Assembly (NCBI RefSeq): GCF_000012285.1
Contig: NC_007181.1
Coordinates: forward strand, 1,170,001-1,202,000
Direction of reading: 5' to 3'
DNA length: 32,000 nt
DNA from: Sulfolobus acidocaldarius DSM 639
GTDB lineage: Archaea; Thermoproteota; Thermoprotei_A; Sulfolobales; Sulfolobaceae
The notes beneath the pieces are model-generated. The model was not told where the DNA came from, did not search any database, and was given only the letters and a program-made list of their open reading frames with translations. This document shows positions 3,921-32,000 of this stretch, piece after piece. Within the stretch, counting starts at the first letter, position 1; the number at the start of each line of letters is the position of its first letter. The position numbers and the translations under genes were made by a program.

Positions 3921-4706
3921 TTAACCCTCAAGAACAATTAGACCCTTTTCTTCGAGTCTCCTTAACACATTGAAAACTTCATCTTTACTAACATCAAAAT
4001 TCTTAGCTATGTAATCTACATCAATAAATCCACCAGTAGTCTTTATGTAATTTAGTATCATATCCTCTGATAAACTCTTCTTGTTGCTACTTTGAACTTG
4101 TTTAGCTACTCTCTTTGGTAACTCTGAAGGTGGATGGGGTAGTTCTGGCAACAATTCTCTAACTTTTACTTCAGCCATCTTCTGAGCTTCTTCCATTATC
4201 TGTTTCGCTTGTTCGTCAGCAACTGTTGGAACAAATGTCTTCTCGCTTAATGCACCAGTTTCAATGGCTATACTATTTACGCTACTCGTTATTGAATCTA
4301 AAGCGAGAGCCACTTCTGGTGCAATACCTCTAACTTGCTCCTTTAATTCTCCTAGTATACGCATTACTGGGAATAGCACCAGAGAAACTCCCTGTAGCTC
4401 CTGGACGGTATCTAGTTTTAATCTTACCTTTTCTATAGCTAAATATGCAGTATATATTATTTTAATCATTTTTCGTATGTCCGAGATCTCTTGTGCATAT
4501 ATCGTAGCTCTCGCTATATCTCCTTCAATTTGAGATCTAATGACTTTCTCAAAGAGATCTTTGTCTCTCTCCCTTAATCTCCTTATTGCTTCGTCTAATC
4601 TATCCTGCTGCTCTTTTAATTTTAAAGATATTTCAGTTATCGCTTTGGACAAATGCACCTTTCTCTTTCTATCACTATTAAAAATTATCGATAACTTATC
4701 AAACAT
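3921..4706 (-). CDS. cdvB: CdvB, ESCRT-III (Snf7-family) protein with C-terminal winged helix
   Basis: 261 aa. It has a long helical-hairpin core, a proline-rich [10 protein letters not shown] (MIM2-type Vps4-binding) motif and a C-terminal wH ([33 protein letters not shown]). Confidence 0.9.

Positions 4707-18388: not shown

Positions 18389-18389
<1 letters not shown>
18258..18389 (+). CDS. 43-aa ribbon-helix-helix (CopG/Arc/MetJ-type) DNA-binding protein, not in ORF track
   Basis: My translation is MRVITFKVDEDLLQELDLYAINSKSSRSEIIREALIRYLKDRK. It has the beta-strand, helix and SRSE-helix pattern of RHH proteins. A TATA-like TTTTTAATATATAA lies about 30 nt upstream. The stop TAA (18387-18389) overlaps the 3' terminal base of the antisense tRNA. 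Confidence 0.6.
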
Positions 18390-18479
<90 letters not shown>

Positions 18480-23672: not shown

Positions 23673-25358
23673 TCACTCTAATGAAGGTGCGCCAGGAGTT
23701 TCTGCTCCTGCTCCCTCTCCACCTTCTTTCTTACCTTTTTCAGTCTTCAGTGCAGATGCAGCTACTAAATCATCGATCTTCAATATTGCAGTAGCAGCCT
23801 CTACAGCACTCTTTAGTACCTGAGATTTTACTCTCACGGGTTCTATTACGTTAATCTTCATCATATCATCCGCAATCTTACCATTAACTGCATCAATACC
23901 GGAATTCACTAATCCTTTTGCATGTCTAGCTCTTAGATCCATTAAAGCCTGAATAGGTTCCATTCCTGCTGTTTCAGCTAATATCATAGGAATTTCTTCT
24001 AATGCTTCAGCAAATTTCTCTATGGCTAACTGCTCTTTGCCACCAACAGATCTTGCATACTCTCTTAACCTCAAGGCTAACTCTGACTCGACTGCACCGC
24101 CACCTGCAACTATCATTGGCTTCATTAGAACATTTCTTAATGAATGTAGGGCATCGTTAAGACTCCTTTCGGCTTCATCTAGAGCCATATCATTGGATCC
24201 CCTCAATAAGATATTCACAGCTCTTGGATTCTTTGCACCTTCAATAAATACCATCTTGTCATTTCCTATTCTTCTTTCTTCAACTAGTTCAGCATATCCT
24301 AAATCCTCTGGTGTAGCATCCTTAATACTACTAATAATTCTAGCTCCTAATGCTTTTTCTAATTTCTCTATGTCACTCCTCTTAACTCTTCTAACGGCTA
24401 ATATTCCCTTCTTTGCAAGGAAGTGCTGGGCTACATCATCAATTCCTTTCTGGCAGATTACTACATTTGCTCCAATTGAAGCTAGCTTGTCTACCATCTC
24501 CTTGAGATATCTAGCCTCTTCATCAAGGAAAGACTTTATCTGCTCAGGACTAGTTATGCTGATTTTTGCAGATATTTCTGGCTTTTCAACCTCTAAAGCT
24601 GCATCTAATACAGCAATTTTTGCCTTTTCTACTCTCCTTGGCATTCCTGCATGTACTACTTCTTTGTCTAGCACAAGACCGTGAACTAAAATACTATCCT
24701 CAATACTTCCTCCTTTCTTCTTATCAATCTTTATTAAGTCAAGAGGTACATTATATGTACCGTCTGGTCTCTTCTCTGCAACTATAGTGATTGCATCTAT
24801 CACAAGGTCAATTATTTTATCTATTTCCTCTGCTCCTCCAGCTATGAACTTGCTGGACATTGTAGTTGATACAATCTTCTTTAATTGAGCCTTTGCAGTG
24901 GGAGAACTTAAGTCATTTACGTCTATCTTTAGAGATAATTGGTCAATGATTTCCAAAGCCTTAGTCAAAGCTTTCTTATAACCATCTATAATTATGGTTG
25001 GATGAACATTCTGCTCTAAAAGTTCCTCTGCCTTGTCTAACAACAGACCTGCCAATACTACTGCAGATGTTGTACCATCTCCCACTTCAGCATCCTGAGC
25101 CTTTGCTGCCTCTACTAGTAATTTTGCTGCAGGATGCTGAATTTCCATTTCTTTGACTATAGTTGCACCATCATTAGTTATAGTCACATCTCCAAAACTG
25201 TCTATCAACATTTTGTCTAAGCCTCTAGGTCCTAAGCTACTCTTTAACATTTCGGCTAAAGTTACAGCAGCTAAAATGTTATTCCTTAAAGCATCTCTAC
25301 CGCTGCTTCTTGAAGTACCCTCCTTAAATAGGAGAACTGGACCAGCCATTTGAGACAC
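23673..25358 (-). CDS. thsA: thermosome (group II chaperonin) alpha subunit
   Basis: 561 aa. The N-terminus ([61 protein letters not shown]) is close to TF55-alpha as I recall it. It has the GDGTTS ATP motif. Confidence 0.92.
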
Positions 25359-25472
25359 CGTTTCTGGTTTGCATTAGAATCGGTTATATATAAATTTTTC
25401 TCTTAAGTAGTTTCAGGAATATATCGCTGTTTACACATAAATTTTTGACTTTCAAAATAGATAGGGCTTAGT

Positions 25473-26213
25473 ATGGATTTATGCCAGAGATGCGGAAAGA
25501 GGGAGTACTTCACAGTTATTGGTGGAAGAAAACTCTGTTCTATGTGCGGAAAGGACGAAATAGTAAAAAGAGTAAGGAAAGAGATGCATCAATCTAAACT
25601 CTTTAATTACAATGATCGTGTAGCTATAATAAGCCCAGAACCGCTCCAGCAAATATCTGATATAGTTGAATCAATAATAGGTAAAGCGTTTTATAGAGTA
25701 AACTTAAAGATAGAAAAGGTCGAAATTTCGATTTCGAATTATAATTATATAAATGAGTATATGTGGAATTTGCTTTTGGAAAGTAAAAAATTATCAGATT
25801 ATAAAATAAAGGTTCTTCCTTTTACATCTAACTTTTTCTTGGCATATATGTTAGAATCGATATCTATATCTGATTACTCTTACCTGAGCTTGTTCAACCC
25901 CTACAGTATAATTGATACGACAATCATATTCATACCACTATATTCGACTCCTATTCAAGAGATAGAATGTTTCTCCAAAATTGACTATAATAAAATCAAA
26001 TTTAAGGATGAACTTTTCAATACTATATTTGATTGGGTTAACCAGCAGTTGAGGGAAAATTATGAGCTTTTTCATACATACTTTAATACGATCAATCTGT
26101 TTAGGACTGATAATAAATGTAAGAACTGCGGGGCTTATATCAACTCTGGGCAGGAATATTGTGAGCGGTGTAAAACTTATTTAGCTTCTCCTTCTCATCT
26201 TTATTTAAAATAA
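25473..26213 (+). CDS. double zinc-ribbon protein, possibly a degenerate TtuA/NcsA-like (PP-loop family) paralogue
   Basis: 246 aa. It has an N-terminal CQRCG...CSMCG and a C-terminal CKNCG...CERC. The position where PP-loop ATPases carry SGGKDS reads VAIISPEPLQ. The family assignment is an inference from architecture only. Confidence 0.45.
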   Translation: MDLCQRCGKREYFTVIGGRKLCSMCGKDEIVKRVRKEMHQSKLFNYNDRVAIISPEPLQQISDIVESIIGKAFYRVNLKIEKVEISISNYNYINEYMWNLLLESKKLSDYKIKVLPFTSNFFLAYMLESISISDYSYLSLFNPYSIIDTTIIFIPLYSTPIQEIECFSKIDYNKIKFKDELFNTIFDWVNQQLRENYELFHTYFNTINLFRTDNKCKNCGAYINSGQEYCERCKTYLASPSHLYLK

Positions 26214-26961
26214 CCTCAAACACTAGAGATAAATCTGAACTTTTCGATTTACCTGGAGGAATCACCCCATCCCAGCTGTAATAGAAGTATCCCTTTGTAA
26301 GAATTTCCTTAAATCCCTCCTTATCAAATTCATAATAATCCTGGAGAACTGAAATTACTCCTATTATTTCCTTTAATTGTTTCATTGAGATTACTGATTT
26401 ACAAATATAACAAGACAGGTCTGGCATTATTGAATTAAATCCACATTTTGGACATTTAACCGGGGAGTTAATTCCATAAGTAGCCCAGGTTGACCTCAAA
26501 ATATCTTCTAAGTCTTTCCTGTTCAATTGGTTGCACTTCTCATATAGCCATGGTCCTAAATCCTTAATTGCAGATTTTATATTAAATACGACAAACTCCA
26601 ACTGATCATTAGTAAGCTTTTCAGGATTGACTACCCTAAGTAATTTGACTGCAAGGAATTCCATTAATGCTTCTTTATTCGCTAATAACCTATTGATTAT
26701 AGTCCTTGATTTAGGCTTACTTTTTACCTCTCCAACAGCTGCAGAAAATGGTTCCTTAATTAACTCTTTGAAACCTTCTCTATCTAGGTTAAGATAAGCT
26801 ATTCCTAATGAGTTTATTACCTCATCTAAATATTCATCTAATAGTTCTAAAGGATTTACGTACTTCTCCTTAGTGGATTTTTTCTTAGTAGATTTAGTTT
26901 TTTCCTCCTTTGTACTATTCTCCTTACTCTTCTCCTCTTCCTGTTTTTTACGTTTAGGCAA
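26140..26961 (-). CDS. hypothetical protein with K/E-rich N-terminal tail and internal zinc ribbon
   Basis: 273 aa. It has an N-terminal MPKRKKQEEEKSKENSTKEEKTKSTKKKSTKEK tail and a CPKCG...CYIC ribbon. I recognise no family. Confidence 0.5.
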   Translation of the reverse strand: MPKRKKQEEEKSKENSTKEEKTKSTKKKSTKEKYVNPLELLDEYLDEVINSLGIAYLNLDREGFKELIKEPFSAAVGEVKSKPKSRTIINRLLANKEALMEFLAVKLLRVVNPEKLTNDQLEFVVFNIKSAIKDLGPWLYEKCNQLNRKDLEDILRSTWATYGINSPVKCPKCGFNSIMPDLSCYICKSVISMKQLKEIIGVISVLQDYYEFDKEGFKEILTKGYFYYSWDGVIPPGKSKSSDLSLVFEVILNKDEKEKLNKFYTAHNIPAQS

Positions 26962-27001
26962 TTTATCCCCTATGTTATTCCTGATTATTTAAAAACATCT
27001 T

Positions 27002-27292
27002 TTAAACTGTATGTGATAAATCAAGATAATCCATCGGAAGCATTTTACCTTTTGATACTATATCGTTATATTTTTTCTCCAAATCTTCTATAAATACAGG
27101 ACAATTTTCAAATCTACCTTCTCTAGTGCACTTGGCACCACCTAGAGTTAGGAAGCAAATACTGGACTTCCTGTCATAATGTGGACATAATTTGTGGTAA
27201 GTTTTTGCACTTTTTATCATTTTTTCAATCCATTGTTTTTTGTGATCTTTCTTTTCAGCTTCTTTCTCAGCTTTTGCTAATACCTTATTCAT
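27002..27292 (-). CDS. small 4-Cys protein (single copy of the module seen at 22460-22849)
   Basis: From ATG 27292 the sequence is MNKVLAKAEKEAEKK...CPHY-x5-C-x8-C-x8-CPVF. An alternative leaderless GTG start at 27346 is suggested by an upstream TATA-like element. The track start at 27466 adds Ser-rich, low-information sequence, which I reject. Confidence 0.5.
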   Translation of the reverse strand: MNKVLAKAEKEAEKKDHKKQWIEKMIKSAKTYHKLCPHYDRKSSICFLTLGGAKCTREGRFENCPVFIEDLEKKYNDIVSKGKMLPMDYLDLSHTV

Positions 27293-27338
27293 CTCATCTT
27301 CAGATATTTTTGAGGATCTTGTTGAGCTTGTCAAACTT

Positions 27339-27414
27339 TCCACCACAATAGGATTAATTTTATGCAAACAGTAAAATAGATTACTACTACAACTACTAAA
27401 AGTATTTTGGTGGA
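27339..27414. repeat. inverted repeat pair TCCACCACAA / TTTTGGTGGA (9 of 10 match)
   Basis: Read directly from the sequence: 27339-27348 and 27405-27414. Confidence 0.7.
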
Positions 27415-27499
27415 TGGTATAAAAACTATTTCCAGAGTTTGTATAAAGTTTGAAGCTTATTAGCATAAAATAACGTTGTTTAAACTTGAGTTGTAGTAG
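27384..27499. repeat. perfect 11-bp inverted repeat CTACTACAACT / AGTTGTAGTAG flanking about 94 bp of AT-rich DNA
   Basis: Read directly from the sequence: 27384-27394 and 27489-27499. Confidence 0.8.
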
Positions 27500-27516
27500 A
27501 AGATATTATGATAGGA

Positions 27517-27540
27517 AAATGAGTGTTTTAACACTCATTT
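27517..27540. repeat. 24-nt palindrome AAATGAGTGTT-TT-AACACTCATTT overlapping the whiP stop codon
   Basis: Read directly from the sequence: 11-bp perfect arms with a 2-nt spacer. Confidence 0.8.
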
Positions 27541-28247
27541 AACTTATCTTTTAAGGACTGTGTAAAACCTATCCTGAGACCCAATTTAGGATCATGATAC
27601 AAATAGAGAATTCTTTTAGTTTGTAATTTTCTTAAAACTCTAAATAACCAACCACTATCAGCTCCATATTCCTCCTGAAGTTGATCTAAATATACATAAG
27701 TAGCTCCCCACTCTTTATATTTCTTCAATAGGAAAGAGACCAAATCTTTCTCATCTGCGTCTAACTTTTCTAGTACTTCTTCGATACAAACCTCAGGTTC
27801 CTTATTTTGTCGTTTATTTACATCTTGACTGGTTTGTTGGTCAATAAACAACAAAAATTCTTTTCTATCCTTGTTATCTTTTTTCTTTGTTTTGTCGTTT
27901 ATTGTCTGTTTAACCTTTTCATTGTATAATTCTTTCGCTATTGCAAGATATTCAGTAAATTTAGTATTGTTTTTACTCTCTAGGATCTCTTTAGCTAAAT
28001 CTTCCCCTACTCTTGATAAGTGCCATCTTCCCGCTTCCTGATATACAAGACCTTTTTTCCTCCAATAACTCAGATAGCTACTTACGTATTTGGTATCCAG
28101 GTTGAGATTTGTGGCTATCTCTGAGGTTCTGAGGGGTCTGGCGAGAAGGAGTATCATAACAGCCTCCATAAGTTTAGACCTTGGACCGCTCTTAAGGATC
28201 TTCTCTTCAATTGCTGTGATGTCAATCTCGCTATCTTCTTTGGGCAT
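27528..28247 (-). CDS. whiP: double winged-helix protein, probable WhiP (Cdt1-like replication initiator)
   Basis: 239 aa. It has an N-terminal wHTH ([39 protein letters not shown]), a K/D-rich linker and a second wH-like domain ([38 protein letters not shown]). It lies four genes from thsA, matching my recollection of the Sulfolobus whiP/oriC3 neighbourhood. Confidence 0.6.
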
Positions 28248-28276
28248 CAGTTACTATTATGCAAACTAAAATATAA

Positions 28277-28297
28277 TATACTCCAAATTATACTCCA
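28277..28297. repeat. tandem direct repeat TATACTCCA x2 (12-bp register) immediately upstream of the whiP TATA box
   Basis: Read directly from the sequence: 28277-28285 and 28289-28297. The whiP TATA box (minus-strand TTATATTT) is centred about 26 nt upstream of ATG 28247. Confidence 0.7.
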
Positions 28298-28320
28298 TGA
28301 GTATTTCCAAAATCTTCTAA

Positions 28321-29403
28321 TTAGGTAATATTACATATTTTAATAGGCTCAAATTCGTTATAACCAACTATTACTTTGTATATCCCTAAGAACTTCTTAT
28401 CTACTTCAGGATCCCCTGTATCTATCCTCAAACACTCAAATGTTTGTAATTTTCTTCTTGAAGAGATCACTATTATATCATCCTTATTTACTCTCTTTAA
28501 TACTCCTGGTCCTATCTCTTGATTTCCTCTACCCAGCAAAAATCCTTGGCCACCAATAGGTGTAACTATAAGTTTTAACTCCCCGGTTAAATTTAACAGA
28601 TCATTATAACTAACGCAACTTCCTATCAGTTTATTCCGAATTACTACGTCTGTACAAAGAAAATTTGTCTCGTAACCTAATCTCTTTATAATGTACTTAG
28701 TTGTAGAACCTGGACCTATTATGAAAACAGCATCTGGATGGTTTTGAAATACATTATCCAACAGGTAGTCTGTTATCTCATTTAATTCCTCCTGTTCTGA
28801 GTATATTTCTGTCTTACTAGGTGTTAAATACGTAGAAAAAGATATGGTTTTAGCATAACCGTATAACTTTACATCGTACTTTCCTTTTCGATATTGTTCT
28901 TCGTCTATATCTAATATCTCAGCATCAACTATTTCCACTCTTTTATTGATTAGCTCTCTAATTAAGTGTCCTGCATCTTCTGGTGTATTAGCGAAAATTC
29001 CACTATGCATCTTTACACCTGTAGGTATGCCAAGTAGTAACTTTTTGTCCTTTACAACACTGTATATGTCTCTAGCTGTACCGTCTCCACCGGCAAACAC
29101 AATTATTGTGCATTCTAGTTCTAAAAACGTCCTGGAAGCTTCGATAGTATTTTGTCTTGTCGTGGGATCGTCTATGTGGATATCTATCACACTAAATTTG
29201 AAGTCGTGTTTTTTAAGAAAGGCTTCACCCATAATTCCAGGAGGTACTATAAATTTAACCTGTTTGGGTACTGTAGAAAGGAATCTTTCCATTTTTGAGT
29301 GTATCTCTGGGTTATAAAACCTTAAATCGTCACTACCCTTATGTCCTATTCTACCTCCGCTTCCTGCTACAGGGTTCACTAGTAAACAAATTGTCTCGTT
29401 CAT
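28321..29403 (-). CDS. ATP-NAD kinase-like (NAD kinase/diacylglycerol kinase fold, COG3199-type) protein
   Basis: 360 aa. It has LLVNPVAGSGGRIG near the N-terminus and a GGDGT motif (FAGGDGTARD). Confidence 0.6.
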   Translation of the reverse strand: MNETICLLVNPVAGSGGRIGHKGSDDLRFYNPEIHSKMERFLSTVPKQVKFIVPPGIMGEAFLKKHDFKFSVIDIHIDDPTTRQNTIEASRTFLELECTIIVFAGGDGTARDIYSVVKDKKLLLGIPTGVKMHSGIFANTPEDAGHLIRELINKRVEIVDAEILDIDEEQYRKGKYDVKLYGYAKTISFSTYLTPSKTEIYSEQEELNEITDYLLDNVFQNHPDAVFIIGPGSTTKYIIKRLGYETNFLCTDVVIRNKLIGSCVSYNDLLNLTGELKLIVTPIGGQGFLLGRGNQEIGPGVLKRVNKDDIIVISSRRKLQTFECLRIDTGDPEVDKKFLGIYKVIVGYNEFEPIKICNIT

Positions 29404-30020
29404 AGGTGTATATTGAGTAGTGCAAAAATTATCTTATATGCTAAATGTATATCTTGGGGTTCAAAAAGAATAATTAATGAGTCACTGGGAATATTTGAAA
29501 ATTTCTCTATTAGTTCAGTTTTTAATCTCTTGATTTCTTCACTTTCGTCGAATGTTTTAGGTGGTAATTCAATTTGATTATCGTTTTTGACTGCAATTAA
29601 TATTTTAGATGCACCTAATTTAACTAAATTGTCTCTGAGGTCTAAAATTCCTATTTTGTTTAGTATGTTGATGCCATTTAGGATTACAACACCATTTACT
29701 TTCCACTGTATACTATATATCATAACATTTTCTAGTATAATAGTTCTTTCATGTAAATATTCTAATAGTTTTTTGCCCTTATCTGTGATAAATATCCCAG
29801 CAACTCTGTCAACCTCCACAAACTCAAGTTCTCTCAGTCTTCTTATCATGGTTCTTATGGATGCTTCTGACAGGGACAACATACGCGTTAATAATTGTCT
29901 TCCAATTGGCTGATGTTTATTTATGGTATCCAAAGCTATTAGCACGTGGGCTTCATCGAAGTTAGGTCTGTTTCCCTTCTTTGGTTCAATGACCTTCAAA
30001 AGCGATATTATTTCTTCCAC
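29400..30020 (-). CDS. winged-helix regulator-like protein (DUF4443-like)
   Basis: 206 aa with a GTG start. It has a wHTH ([48 protein letters not shown]). Its stop overlaps the start of the kinase-like gene by 4 nt. The family name is from memory. Confidence 0.5.
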
Positions 30021-30052
30021 GTTTTTATAGTAGCGTATTTAAAAATAAAAAT

Positions 30053-30973
30053 ATGTTAAAGGGTAAAAGCCTACTAACGTTGTTGGATTTCTCGAATTAT
30101 GAGATAGAAAGTATTATAAATCTATCATTCTCTATGAAGAGCTTTGTTAATTTAAACAGTGTTCCTAAAACTTTAGAAAATAAAAAGATAGCTCTAATTT
30201 TCGAGAAGCCTAGTACTAGGACCAGAATAAGTACCGAGTTAGCTGTAAAGCTTCTTGGGGGTACTAGTATAGTCTTGTCTAAATCAGATATTCAACTAGG
30301 AAGAGGAGAAACTGTAGAAGATACTGCTAGAGTTCTAGGAAGATATGTGGATGGCATAGGTGCACGAGTTCTAAATCATAATAGCCTTGAAATACTATCA
30401 AAGTATTCTCGGAAGCCTGTCATAAATCTGTTGAGTGATGTATCCCATCCCTTACAAGCGCTAACTGATTTTATGACTGTCAAAGAGAGATTTGGTACGT
30501 ACACGAATATGGCATTTATAGGAGATGGAACGGACAACGTGCTAACAAGCCTTATGGAGTTTGTGTCTAAGATGGGATTAGAATTAAGGGTAGCCAGTCC
30601 AAAGGAGTTCAGACCAAAGCAAGAGGTATGGCGTAGAATAGAAGAGGAGAGTGAAAAAAGTGGTGCGATCATAGAGTTTTATGAAGATCCTTATGAGGCT
30701 GTAAGGGGAGTGAAGGTTGTTTATACGGATGTATGGGTAAGTATGGGGCAGGAGAGTATAGCAGAAGAGAAGAAAAAGAAGTTGAAAGACTATAAAGTAA
30801 CCAGAGATTTAATGAGATATGCCAGTAAAGACGCAATTTTTATGCATTGCTTACCTGCAGTTAGAGGTGAGGAAGTCGAGGATGATGTAATAGACGGTCA
30901 TCAAAGTGCTGTGTGGGATCAGGCTGAGAACAGACTTTATACTGCTATGGCTGTGCTTTCTCTATTTATTTAA
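30053..30973 (+). CDS. argF: ornithine carbamoyltransferase
   Basis: 306 aa with the motifs [20 protein letters not shown] and HCLPA. Confidence 0.9.
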
Positions 30974-32000
30974 AAAGAAACTCATCTATTCTTCTTTGAC
31001 CAATTATTTTCTTTATACTCTTAAGACCCAATAAGTTGATTTTATCATTAGCTTCCAGGTTTGTATTTACGTACTTTAATGACTCTTCGATCGTATTGAA
31101 GGTTTTGGGTTTATTTTCTAATGCTCTTTTTACAGTCTCTCTTATGTGCCAATTACCTACTGGTGCAAAGTAGTCTTTAGTTATCTCCCTTATTATTATG
31201 ATACCAGCTTGTCTTCTTCTCTTATATAGTTTTTCTATTATTGAAAATCTAGCTGCAATATATCCACCATCTAGAGAGTCATATTCACCCCAATAATTCT
31301 CAGATAGTTCGCTTATTATTAATTCCGTAGTCCATAAAGATAATGGGTGCCATATTTCTATCCAAGTGGAGCTATGTGAAGAAGGATATAGAATTATATG
31401 AAAATGATTGCCTAAATAAGATCCATAATAGTACTCTACATTATCTATTGTGTCTAGAGTTCTGATATTATCTAAAAGATAATTGCCTACAATCTGATCT
31501 ACTGCTGTTATGCTCCACCTAGTCGGCACTAATTTCCTGTTTCTTTTAAGTCCTAGAAAACCAAGAGAGAAAGCACTTATAATCCTGTAGTAGTTTTCAT
31601 TGTCTAAGTAGAGCTTAATTACACTTTCCTCTGCTTTAAGGTCATCAAATATGAGTTTTTGAATTGTTCTGGGCACTTTAGGATTTTCACTGACTTTTAT
31701 TGACTGAACAGTGAGAGATGGTCCTCTGGGTATTAGAATACCATCAAATTTAAGTTTAGGAACTATTTTCCCAGAACTGTCTGTTTCTGAAACTACAGGT
31801 TTTTCAGATATTCCAGCCAAAGAGATTTCTTTTTCATATAATTTGTACGGGTCTCTAACATTTAGCCCGCCTAATATTGTTGAAATTAGGGAACTTCTTA
31901 TGGATATTATGTCATTAAGGCTCTTTCTTCCCCACCAGCCCTCTGGATTCTCGTAATCTTTTGCTTCTTCTCCTATAACTCCAGGTGGTATATTATAAAC
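30966..32000 (-). CDS. Nre-family (DUF650/DUF651-type) DNA repair protein, N-terminus outside window
   Basis: The track starts it at TTG 31820. However, the same frame stays open to base 32000 in my translation ([38 protein letters not shown]...). It has the conserved [10 protein letters not shown] motif and a C-terminal [12 protein letters not shown]-like box. The family call is from memory. Confidence 0.5.

Follow-up and report, generated by a model that had tools for sequence, protein, structure and literature searches.

The closest described counterpart of the DNA considered here is oriC3, the third replication origin of the Sulfolobus chromosome, which depends on WhiP and which we compare below with the intergenic spacer downstream of whiP in a 32,000-nucleotide stretch of the Sulfolobus acidocaldarius DSM 639 chromosome (the window, i.e., the whole stretch that was analyzed). 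Initiation at oriC3 maps to the intergenic region directly downstream of whiP; in vitro, WhiP has sites at the boundaries of that region and binds further repeats inside the whiP open reading frame (ORF), and in vivo, too, it is WhiP that is detected at oriC3 (Samson et al. 2013, PMC3607249). As shown in S. islandicus, the firing of oriC3 requires WhiP and none of the Orc1/Cdc6 proteins (PMC3607249). The origin adjoins whiP in both S. acidocaldarius and S. solfataricus, and neither an origin recognition box (ORB) nor a mini-ORB has been observed there (Wu et al. 2014, PMC4010727); in S. islandicus and S. solfataricus, oriC3 has been described as a UCM with ORB-like sites on either side (Jaubert et al. 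2013, PMC3718332). Origins of S. acidocaldarius have been mapped (Lundgren 2004 and Duggin 2008), and two articles that cite this work place its oriC3 at ~1.2 Mb (PMC5809426, PMC12361140).

The ucm, an 11-bp motif bound by the nucleoid protein UBP (Saci_0847), occurs in all three origins, oriC1 to oriC3. It shows conservation in Sulfolobales and Aeropyrum, and oriC1 activity depends on it; UBP binds it midway between ORB2 and ORB3 and appears to aid the MCM helicase in leaving the origin (PMC12141716). In the oligonucleotide table of that article (Dhanaraju et al. 2025, PMC12141716), ATTATACAAAC stands for the ucm of S. acidocaldarius, CGGCGCACCCA is the transversion control for it, and ATTATACAAAAG is the ucm duplex of S. 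islandicus oriC1. One of the two Aeropyrum pernix origins has been stated to correspond to Sulfolobus oriC3 (PMC10769869). In addition, WhiP has been called reminiscent of plasmid Rep proteins, and oriC3 a captured extrachromosomal replicon (PMC3607249).

The spacer downstream of whiP is very probably oriC3

A reading of the window from its letters alone (hereafter, the sequence-only reading) had proposed that the repeat-dense, AT-rich DNA at 27293-27527 is oriC3. Our comparison leads to the same assignment: the spacer downstream of whiP is very probably oriC3, the WhiP-dependent third chromosomal origin of S. acidocaldarius, given that its adjacency to whiP, a box-ucm-box arrangement, repeats inside the whiP ORF, and synteny all agree with the published origin. 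The finding itself is not new, since oriC3 and its initiator have already been published, as have the ucm and the repeats inside the ORF.

The gene order agrees with the statement of the sequence-only reading that the third origin lies beside whiP and a few genes from thsA. In the window, whiP occupies 27528-28247 on the minus strand, with the spacer on its 3' side. The order runs from Nre through ornithine carbamoyltransferase (OTCase), DUF4443, NAD kinase, and whiP to the spacer and a small gene encoding 108-110 aa, followed by a ~270-aa gene, a ~240-aa gene on the other strand, and the thermosome alpha gene (thsA). The same order from Nre to thsA is kept in Stygiolobus, Sulfurisphaera tokodaii, Saccharolobus, Metallosphaera, Sulfuracidifex, and Sulfolobus sp. 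A20, and two draft contigs of S. acidocaldarius match the DNA of the window at 99.6-100% identity.

The identification of this ORF as whiP, which encodes the oriC3 initiator with its tandem winged helices, draws on named homologues, a family match, and a structural model. The translated ORF is 100% identical to the NCBI protein [quoted passage not shown] over the 81% covered by that truncated 198-aa entry, and it matches HTH_45 at the Pfam threshold. In the AlphaFold model (30 homologues; mean predicted local distance difference test score, pLDDT, 74), a winged helix at residues 25-77 leads into a long helix, a disordered linker at ~115-147 (pLDDT <50), and another winged helix at 164-228, so that the double winged-helix gene of the sequence-only reading does have both domains in its predicted structure. 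Pfam, NCBIfam, and PDB sequence searches of WhiP gave weak generic winged helix-turn-helix matches only. A Foldseek search of the model against the PDB likewise returned only generic MarR/Sso10a-type winged helices, with neither Cdt1 nor Rep among the 50 matches listed, and the link of WhiP to Cdt1 is therefore one taken from the literature only.

Two public S. acidocaldarius draft assemblies carry Nextera/Tn5 mosaic-end sequence (CTGTCTCTTATACACATCT and AGATGTGTATAAGAGACAG) in the 5' part of whiP, at ~3975-4010 of locus L006 and 3957-4012 of locus L007. The truncated 198-aa annotation is attributable to this sequence; the intact gene in the window encodes 239 aa.

Two inverted boxes flank a ucm in 20 whiP-linked loci

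The non-coding stretch had been given as 235 bp, or 181 bp if the small gene started at GTG 27346 in place of ATG 27292. Both starts are wrong. In 4 of 12 species, an Ile aligns with the 27292 Met, and the protein has a conserved N-terminus that begins upstream of it; the start is therefore TTG 27334. The ORF map, this N-terminal conservation, and the literature together delimit an oriC3 intergenic core of 193 bp (27335-27527) from the whiP stop to the small-gene TTG. The cis elements of the origin also reach beyond 27527 into whiP.

We compared the spacer of the window with those of 11 other genomes (12 genome loci) and 8 metagenome loci, making 20 whiP-linked loci of Sulfolobales in total. 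A pattern scan of metagenomes had yielded 27 matches, 11 of which had whiP and the small gene on their two sides; one further match (L017, at a contig end) lay beside the small gene only. These 12 linked matches, of which 8 distinct ones were tabulated, all have the same orientation; each is located between whiP and the small gene or, at a contig end, next to the latter. The other 15 matches are most likely chance occurrences of a loose pattern in AT-rich DNA.

In 20 of 20 loci, the whiP-sense strand carries three islands of conservation, always in one order. Their consensus reads tACTACWACt, ~50 nt, ATTATACAAAC (at most one mismatch), ~45-58 nt, and GTWGTAGTAGTAAT, directly followed by nTATWTWA. 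The first box and the ucm are 45-62 nt apart in 15 loci and farther apart in the other 5, and from the ucm to the distal box the spacing is 43-58 nt in all of them. Between the islands, an alignment of nine sequences showed no alignable conservation. At the orthologous Saccharolobus oriC3 locus (L010), comparison with which had been suggested, the same box-ucm-box arrangement recurs at a 51/47-nt spacing, together with the same in-ORF offsets.

In the window, the whiP-proximal box is CTACTACAACT at 27489-27499 on the minus strand (consensus TACTACWACT), one arm of an 11-nt inverted repeat. Such a box is found close to whiP in the spacer of all 20 loci and is a putative WhiP initiator site at the whiP-side boundary of the spacer. 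The other arm belongs to the distal inverted box, AGTTGTAGTAGTAAT at 27380-27394 on the minus strand (consensus GTWGTAGTAGTAAT), whose core GTAGTAGTAAT is invariant across the nine-sequence alignment and has its sole exact match in the window here. By its position, it is a candidate initiator site on the spacer boundary away from whiP. The two boxes are inverted copies of each other in every species, and in S. acidocaldarius, where both have ACAAC in place of ACTAC, they form an inverted repeat that is perfect over 11 nt.

The distal box overlaps an element at 27372-27385 (minus strand), composed of AGTAAT and, at 27372-27379, the TATA-like CTATTTTA, and delimited by the invariant columns GTAGTAGTAAT-TAT-T-A. 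AGTAAT plus nTATWTWA occurs in 20 of 20 loci, ~50 nt upstream of the small-gene start. Going by the Sulfolobus consensus for the B recognition element (BRE) and the TATA box, we take this element to be the small-gene promoter. With the distal box overlapping such a BRE/TATA element, origin and promoter would share DNA.

Midway between the box arms, with gaps of 41 and 42 nt, lies the ucm: TTTATACAAAC at 27437-27447 on the minus strand matches the S. acidocaldarius ucm at 10 of 11 positions, its first base being T instead of A. A ucm with at most one mismatch is expected ~1.6 times per 32 kb on both strands, or ~0.006 times per 250 nt of a single strand; what we observed is such a ucm on the whiP-sense strand in 20 of 20 spacers. 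Neither it nor the repeats inside whiP had been listed in the sequence-only reading.

The other species have exactly one ucm within ~1.5 kb of whiP, and only S. acidocaldarius carries, in addition, two near-ucm copies of the TTATGCAAAC type. These are TTTATGCAAAC at 27358-27368, just downstream of the small-gene TATA box, and ATTATGCAAAC at 28256-28266, just upstream of the whiP start, both on the plus strand. The pair lies in a 32-nt direct repeat of 72% identity (27354-27385 and 28251-28282), and no such copies were found at the corresponding positions in the other species.

Sites inside whiP keep a fixed geometry

According to the legend of Figure S1 in PMC3607249, conserved AT-rich repeats within the whiP ORF are footprinted by WhiP, which binds them with nanomolar affinity. 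Three 15-bp CAATAAACRACAAAA sites between 27805 and 27904 match these published repeats. Site 1 (CAATAAACGACAAAA, 27890-27904, minus strand) is in the whiP sense; site 2 (CAATAAACAACAAAA, 27842-27856, plus strand) is antisense and follows 48 nt after site 1; and site 3 (AAATAAACGACAAAA, 27805-27819, minus strand), again in the whiP sense, follows 85 nt after site 1 in another reading frame.

Eight cultured Sulfolobaceae share exactly the offsets 0/+48/+85, with the 85-bp spacing occurring in S. acidocaldarius, Sulfurisphaera, Metallosphaera, Sulfuracidifex, Saccharolobus, and Stygiolobus. Since 85 is not a multiple of 3 and the direct copies stand in different frames, the constraint acts on the DNA and not on the protein. 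The sites fall in codons ~115-148, i.e., the segment that encodes the disordered linker between the winged-helix domains. This fixed geometry in linker-coding DNA, kept across genera, is undescribed in the literature that we surveyed.

A direct repeat, TATACTCCA, occurs twice, 12 nt apart, upstream of the whiP start (28277-28297), with a TTTCCA at 28304-28309 adjoining it. It may be a promoter or operator feature of whiP.

Origin, promoter, and other readings of the spacer

Several points weigh against taking the spacer and its boxes as the working origin. The evidence for initiation and protein binding is that published for S. solfataricus, S. islandicus, and S. acidocaldarius, and whether the TACTAC boxes coincide with the WhiP footprints reported there is uncertain. 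It is not evident that the boxes, with TACTACWAC, and the in-ORF sites, with AATAAACRACAAAA, represent one motif, and one of the two may bind another protein. The conservation of the distal box could be due in part to its promoter role. Moreover, the description of the spacer as AT-rich holds only to a modest degree: its GC content is 27.5%, and that of the segment between the boxes is 26.6% (in the lowest 8% of 94-bp tiles in the window), against 34.6% for the window. In a duplex-stability profile, the spacer ranks among the 3% least stable 40-bp segments, yet it is not the minimum of the 32 kb, and composition therefore does not mark out a distinctive unwinding element.

The in vivo WhiP signal also deserves mention here, as the peak in chromatin immunoprecipitation sequencing lies mainly inside the ORF and is shallow over the spacer (PMC3607249). 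This would suit a purely transcriptional role of the spacer elements, in which the distal box and BRE/TATA form a regulated promoter/operator, the proximal box serves as a second operator, the palindrome at the whiP stop is the whiP terminator, and the replicator resides only in whiP. The fusion of the distal box to the invariant BRE/TATA-like element, ~50 nt upstream of the small-gene start, points the same way. Such a reading leaves the central ucm unexplained, however, a motif that is essential at oriC1, is reported at all three origins, and lies midway between the boxes. In addition, oriC3 initiation has been mapped to the downstream spacer, and WhiP footprints to the spacer boundaries (PMC3607249). 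A box ~100 nt upstream of the distal one, at conserved spacing and inverted around a UBP site, mirrors the ORB3-ucm-ORB2 arrangement of oriC1. A transcriptional and an origin role are also compatible with each other. We thus regard a spacer devoted to transcription as improbable, and prefer the reading of the spacer as oriC3.

The inverted arms could, in principle, pair with each other, and small RNAs are common in Sulfolobus intergenic regions; hence the spacer might be viewed as a small non-coding RNA, or its 11-nt arms as forming a functional hairpin or cruciform. Perfect complementarity of the boxes varies between 5 and 13 nt among the species, and the W position shows no covariation, which fits degenerate protein sites and not a conserved hairpin. 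The 94 nt between the arms are unconserved as well, and tRNA and Rfam scans found nothing near the region, no Rfam family reaching threshold. This explanation is, accordingly, very unlikely, and oriC3 remains the reading under which we consider the individual repeats.

Repeats of the sequence-only reading

Among the repeats that had been listed from the letters of the window, only the 11-nt inverted repeat belongs to the conserved origin architecture. It is present as described, with CTACTACAACT at 27384-27394 and AGTTGTAGTAG at 27489-27499 enclosing 94 nt. A perfect inverted repeat of at least 11 nt occurs in 1.9% of Markov-1 random 235-mers and at approximately six places in the window. By itself, the repeat is thus only modestly unusual, and it owes its significance to conservation in the 20 orthologous loci.

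The second inverted pair, TCCACCACAA at 27339-27348 and TTTTGGTGGA at 27405-27414, was correctly located, and it is imperfect: 9 of 10 positions are complementary, and the repeat search scores the pair at 74% over 23 nt. It is not conserved in the aligned orthologous spacers. Its TCCACCACAA arm is the GGTGG Shine-Dalgarno sequence of the small gene (27340-27344, minus strand).

Both TTTCCA copies (27337-27342 and 27429-27434) are likewise where they had been reported, and they are not conserved in the orthologues. The hexamer is found 38 times in the window (about once per 840 bp), which is near its chance frequency. In agreement with the sequence-only reading, we found no full ORB dyad: with an ORB core derived from S. 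islandicus ORB2/ORB3, no match within three mismatches was detected in 27335-27527. Because no ORB or mini-ORB is reported for oriC3 in the literature and none was found here, no meaning attaches to the TTTCCA "half-sites" as ORB elements.

The palindrome at the whiP stop also exists at its coordinates (27517-27527 and 27530-27540, minus strand), where the repeat search shows 11+11 nt over the stop codon followed by TTTT. As RNA, it would fold into a hairpin of -14.2 kcal/mol. It is found only in S. acidocaldarius and is missing from the 11 other species compared, so it does not stand as a part of the origin and is possibly a species-specific 3'-end element of the whiP transcript. Overall, conservation in orthologous whiP flanks holds for the 11-nt pair and fails for the second pair, TTTCCA, and the palindrome.

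That the repeats are chance features of ordinary AT-rich intergenic DNA is extremely unlikely: the background frequency of 11-nt inverted repeats and the unconserved pair, hexamers, and palindrome, all at or near chance, would fit it, but the same three elements stand in 20 of 20 loci amid unconserved spacer DNA, with the ucm always on the same strand.

Two other types of origin were rejected. An ORB-type Orc1/Cdc6 origin would have ORB or mini-ORB dyads on both sides of its unwinding element, and none was found in the spacer; no AAA+ Orc1/Cdc6 ORF was found within 24000-31000, and the neighboring initiator is WhiP. An iteron-type plasmid origin was set aside as well, as there is no tandem array and the sites are dispersed.

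Relatives of the locus and a possible mechanism

The locus shares with the oriC3 of Saccharolobus solfataricus and Sulfolobus islandicus its position after whiP, the synteny to thsA, a ucm between boundary sites, AT-rich in-ORF repeats, and the lack of ORB and mini-ORB sequences. Differences are at the species level only, namely T at position 1 of the S. acidocaldarius ucm, the ACAAC boxes, the stop palindrome, and the two TTATGCAAAC copies.

With Sulfolobus oriC1, which depends on Orc1-1 and where ORB3 and ORB2 enclose a DNA unwinding element (DUE) and the ucm, the resemblance is one of working and not of membership: in both origins, two inverted sites lie ~90-100 bp apart with a ucm midway. 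In S. acidocaldarius oriC3, however, the boxes are of the TACTAC type and not ORBs, the initiator is no Orc1/Cdc6 protein but has tandem winged helices without an AAA+ domain, and extra high-affinity sites lie in the initiator gene.

A further relative is the WhiP-linked origin of the Desulfurococcales. In Pyrodictium occultum, TTTATACAAAC stands 165 bp past the stop of a whiP homologue on the whiP-sense strand (L015, 3945-3955), in a locally AT-richer stretch of a GC-rich genome. A ucm downstream of whiP is thus shared, whereas the Pyrodictium locus shows no clear (TAC)n, GTAGTAGTAAT, or TACTAC boxes and no small Cys4 gene nearby.

Iteron plasmid origins with winged-helix Rep proteins have in common with oriC3 an initiator gene beside the origin, tandem winged helices, and repeated short sites; they differ in that oriC3 has two direct and one inverted in-gene copies, the direct ones 85 bp apart, as well as an inverted pair in the spacer. 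Among IMG/VR viral contigs, neither a WhiP homologue nor a box-ucm-box module was detected, and so no extrachromosomal relative was found there.

From the literature and the analogy to oriC1, we propose that WhiP, encoded next door, would bind the in-ORF sites strongly and the boundary boxes more weakly, although it is uncertain whether the same protein surface contacts both. WhiP at the inverted boundary boxes might direct the MCM helicase onto the moderately AT-rich ~94-bp DNA between them, and UBP on the central ucm would promote the exit of MCM from the origin. Bidirectional replication would then begin in the spacer, once per cell cycle. More speculatively, the overlap of distal box and promoter may allow origin occupancy and small-gene transcription to affect each other.

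The present understanding of archaeal replication is left unchanged by these results. They do confirm that reading a sequence alone can locate a non-ORB archaeal origin, and they provide base-level coordinates of the S. acidocaldarius oriC3 (boxes, ucm, and in-ORF sites) together with a 20-locus consensus and its spacing, which should be of use in the design of origin mutants, the species being genetically tractable, and in the annotation of oriC3 as new Sulfolobales genomes appear. The constant fusion of the distal box to the promoter of the Cys4 gene and the fixed in-ORF geometry are added observations and amount to modest refinements.

The small gene next to oriC3

The small Cys4 protein gene (27002-27334, minus strand) encodes 110 aa from a TTG start, as given by synteny, the N-terminal alignment, and the 110-aa call of NCBI. 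Its product begins with (M/L)-x3-(R/K)-S-x-K-(I/M)-S-E-(D/E)-(E/D), kept in 12 species, and in all 12 the conserved start codon has a GGTG or GGAGG 5-9 nt ahead of it. The gene is always the first one after oriC3, and its homologues are all hypothetical proteins of Sulfolobales; searches of Pfam, NCBIfam, and the PDB returned no relative. Between S. acidocaldarius and Stygiolobus, the small protein is ~95% identical over the aligned 96 aa, compared with only 70-73% for WhiP. One may speculate that the gene is an unrecognized third component of the WhiP/oriC3 replicon, either with its transcription mechanically coupled to the occupancy of the origin by WhiP or MCM, or with its product acting at oriC3, an idea that we consider rather doubtful.

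Other features of the window

GC and AT skew, calculated at 200-bp and 2-kb scales, track gene orientation and have no informative turning point. Elsewhere in the window, a 91-nt tRNA at 18389-18479 on the minus strand scores 59.6 bits in Rfam; its anticodon was left unassigned by ARAGORN, and the gene probably contains an intron.

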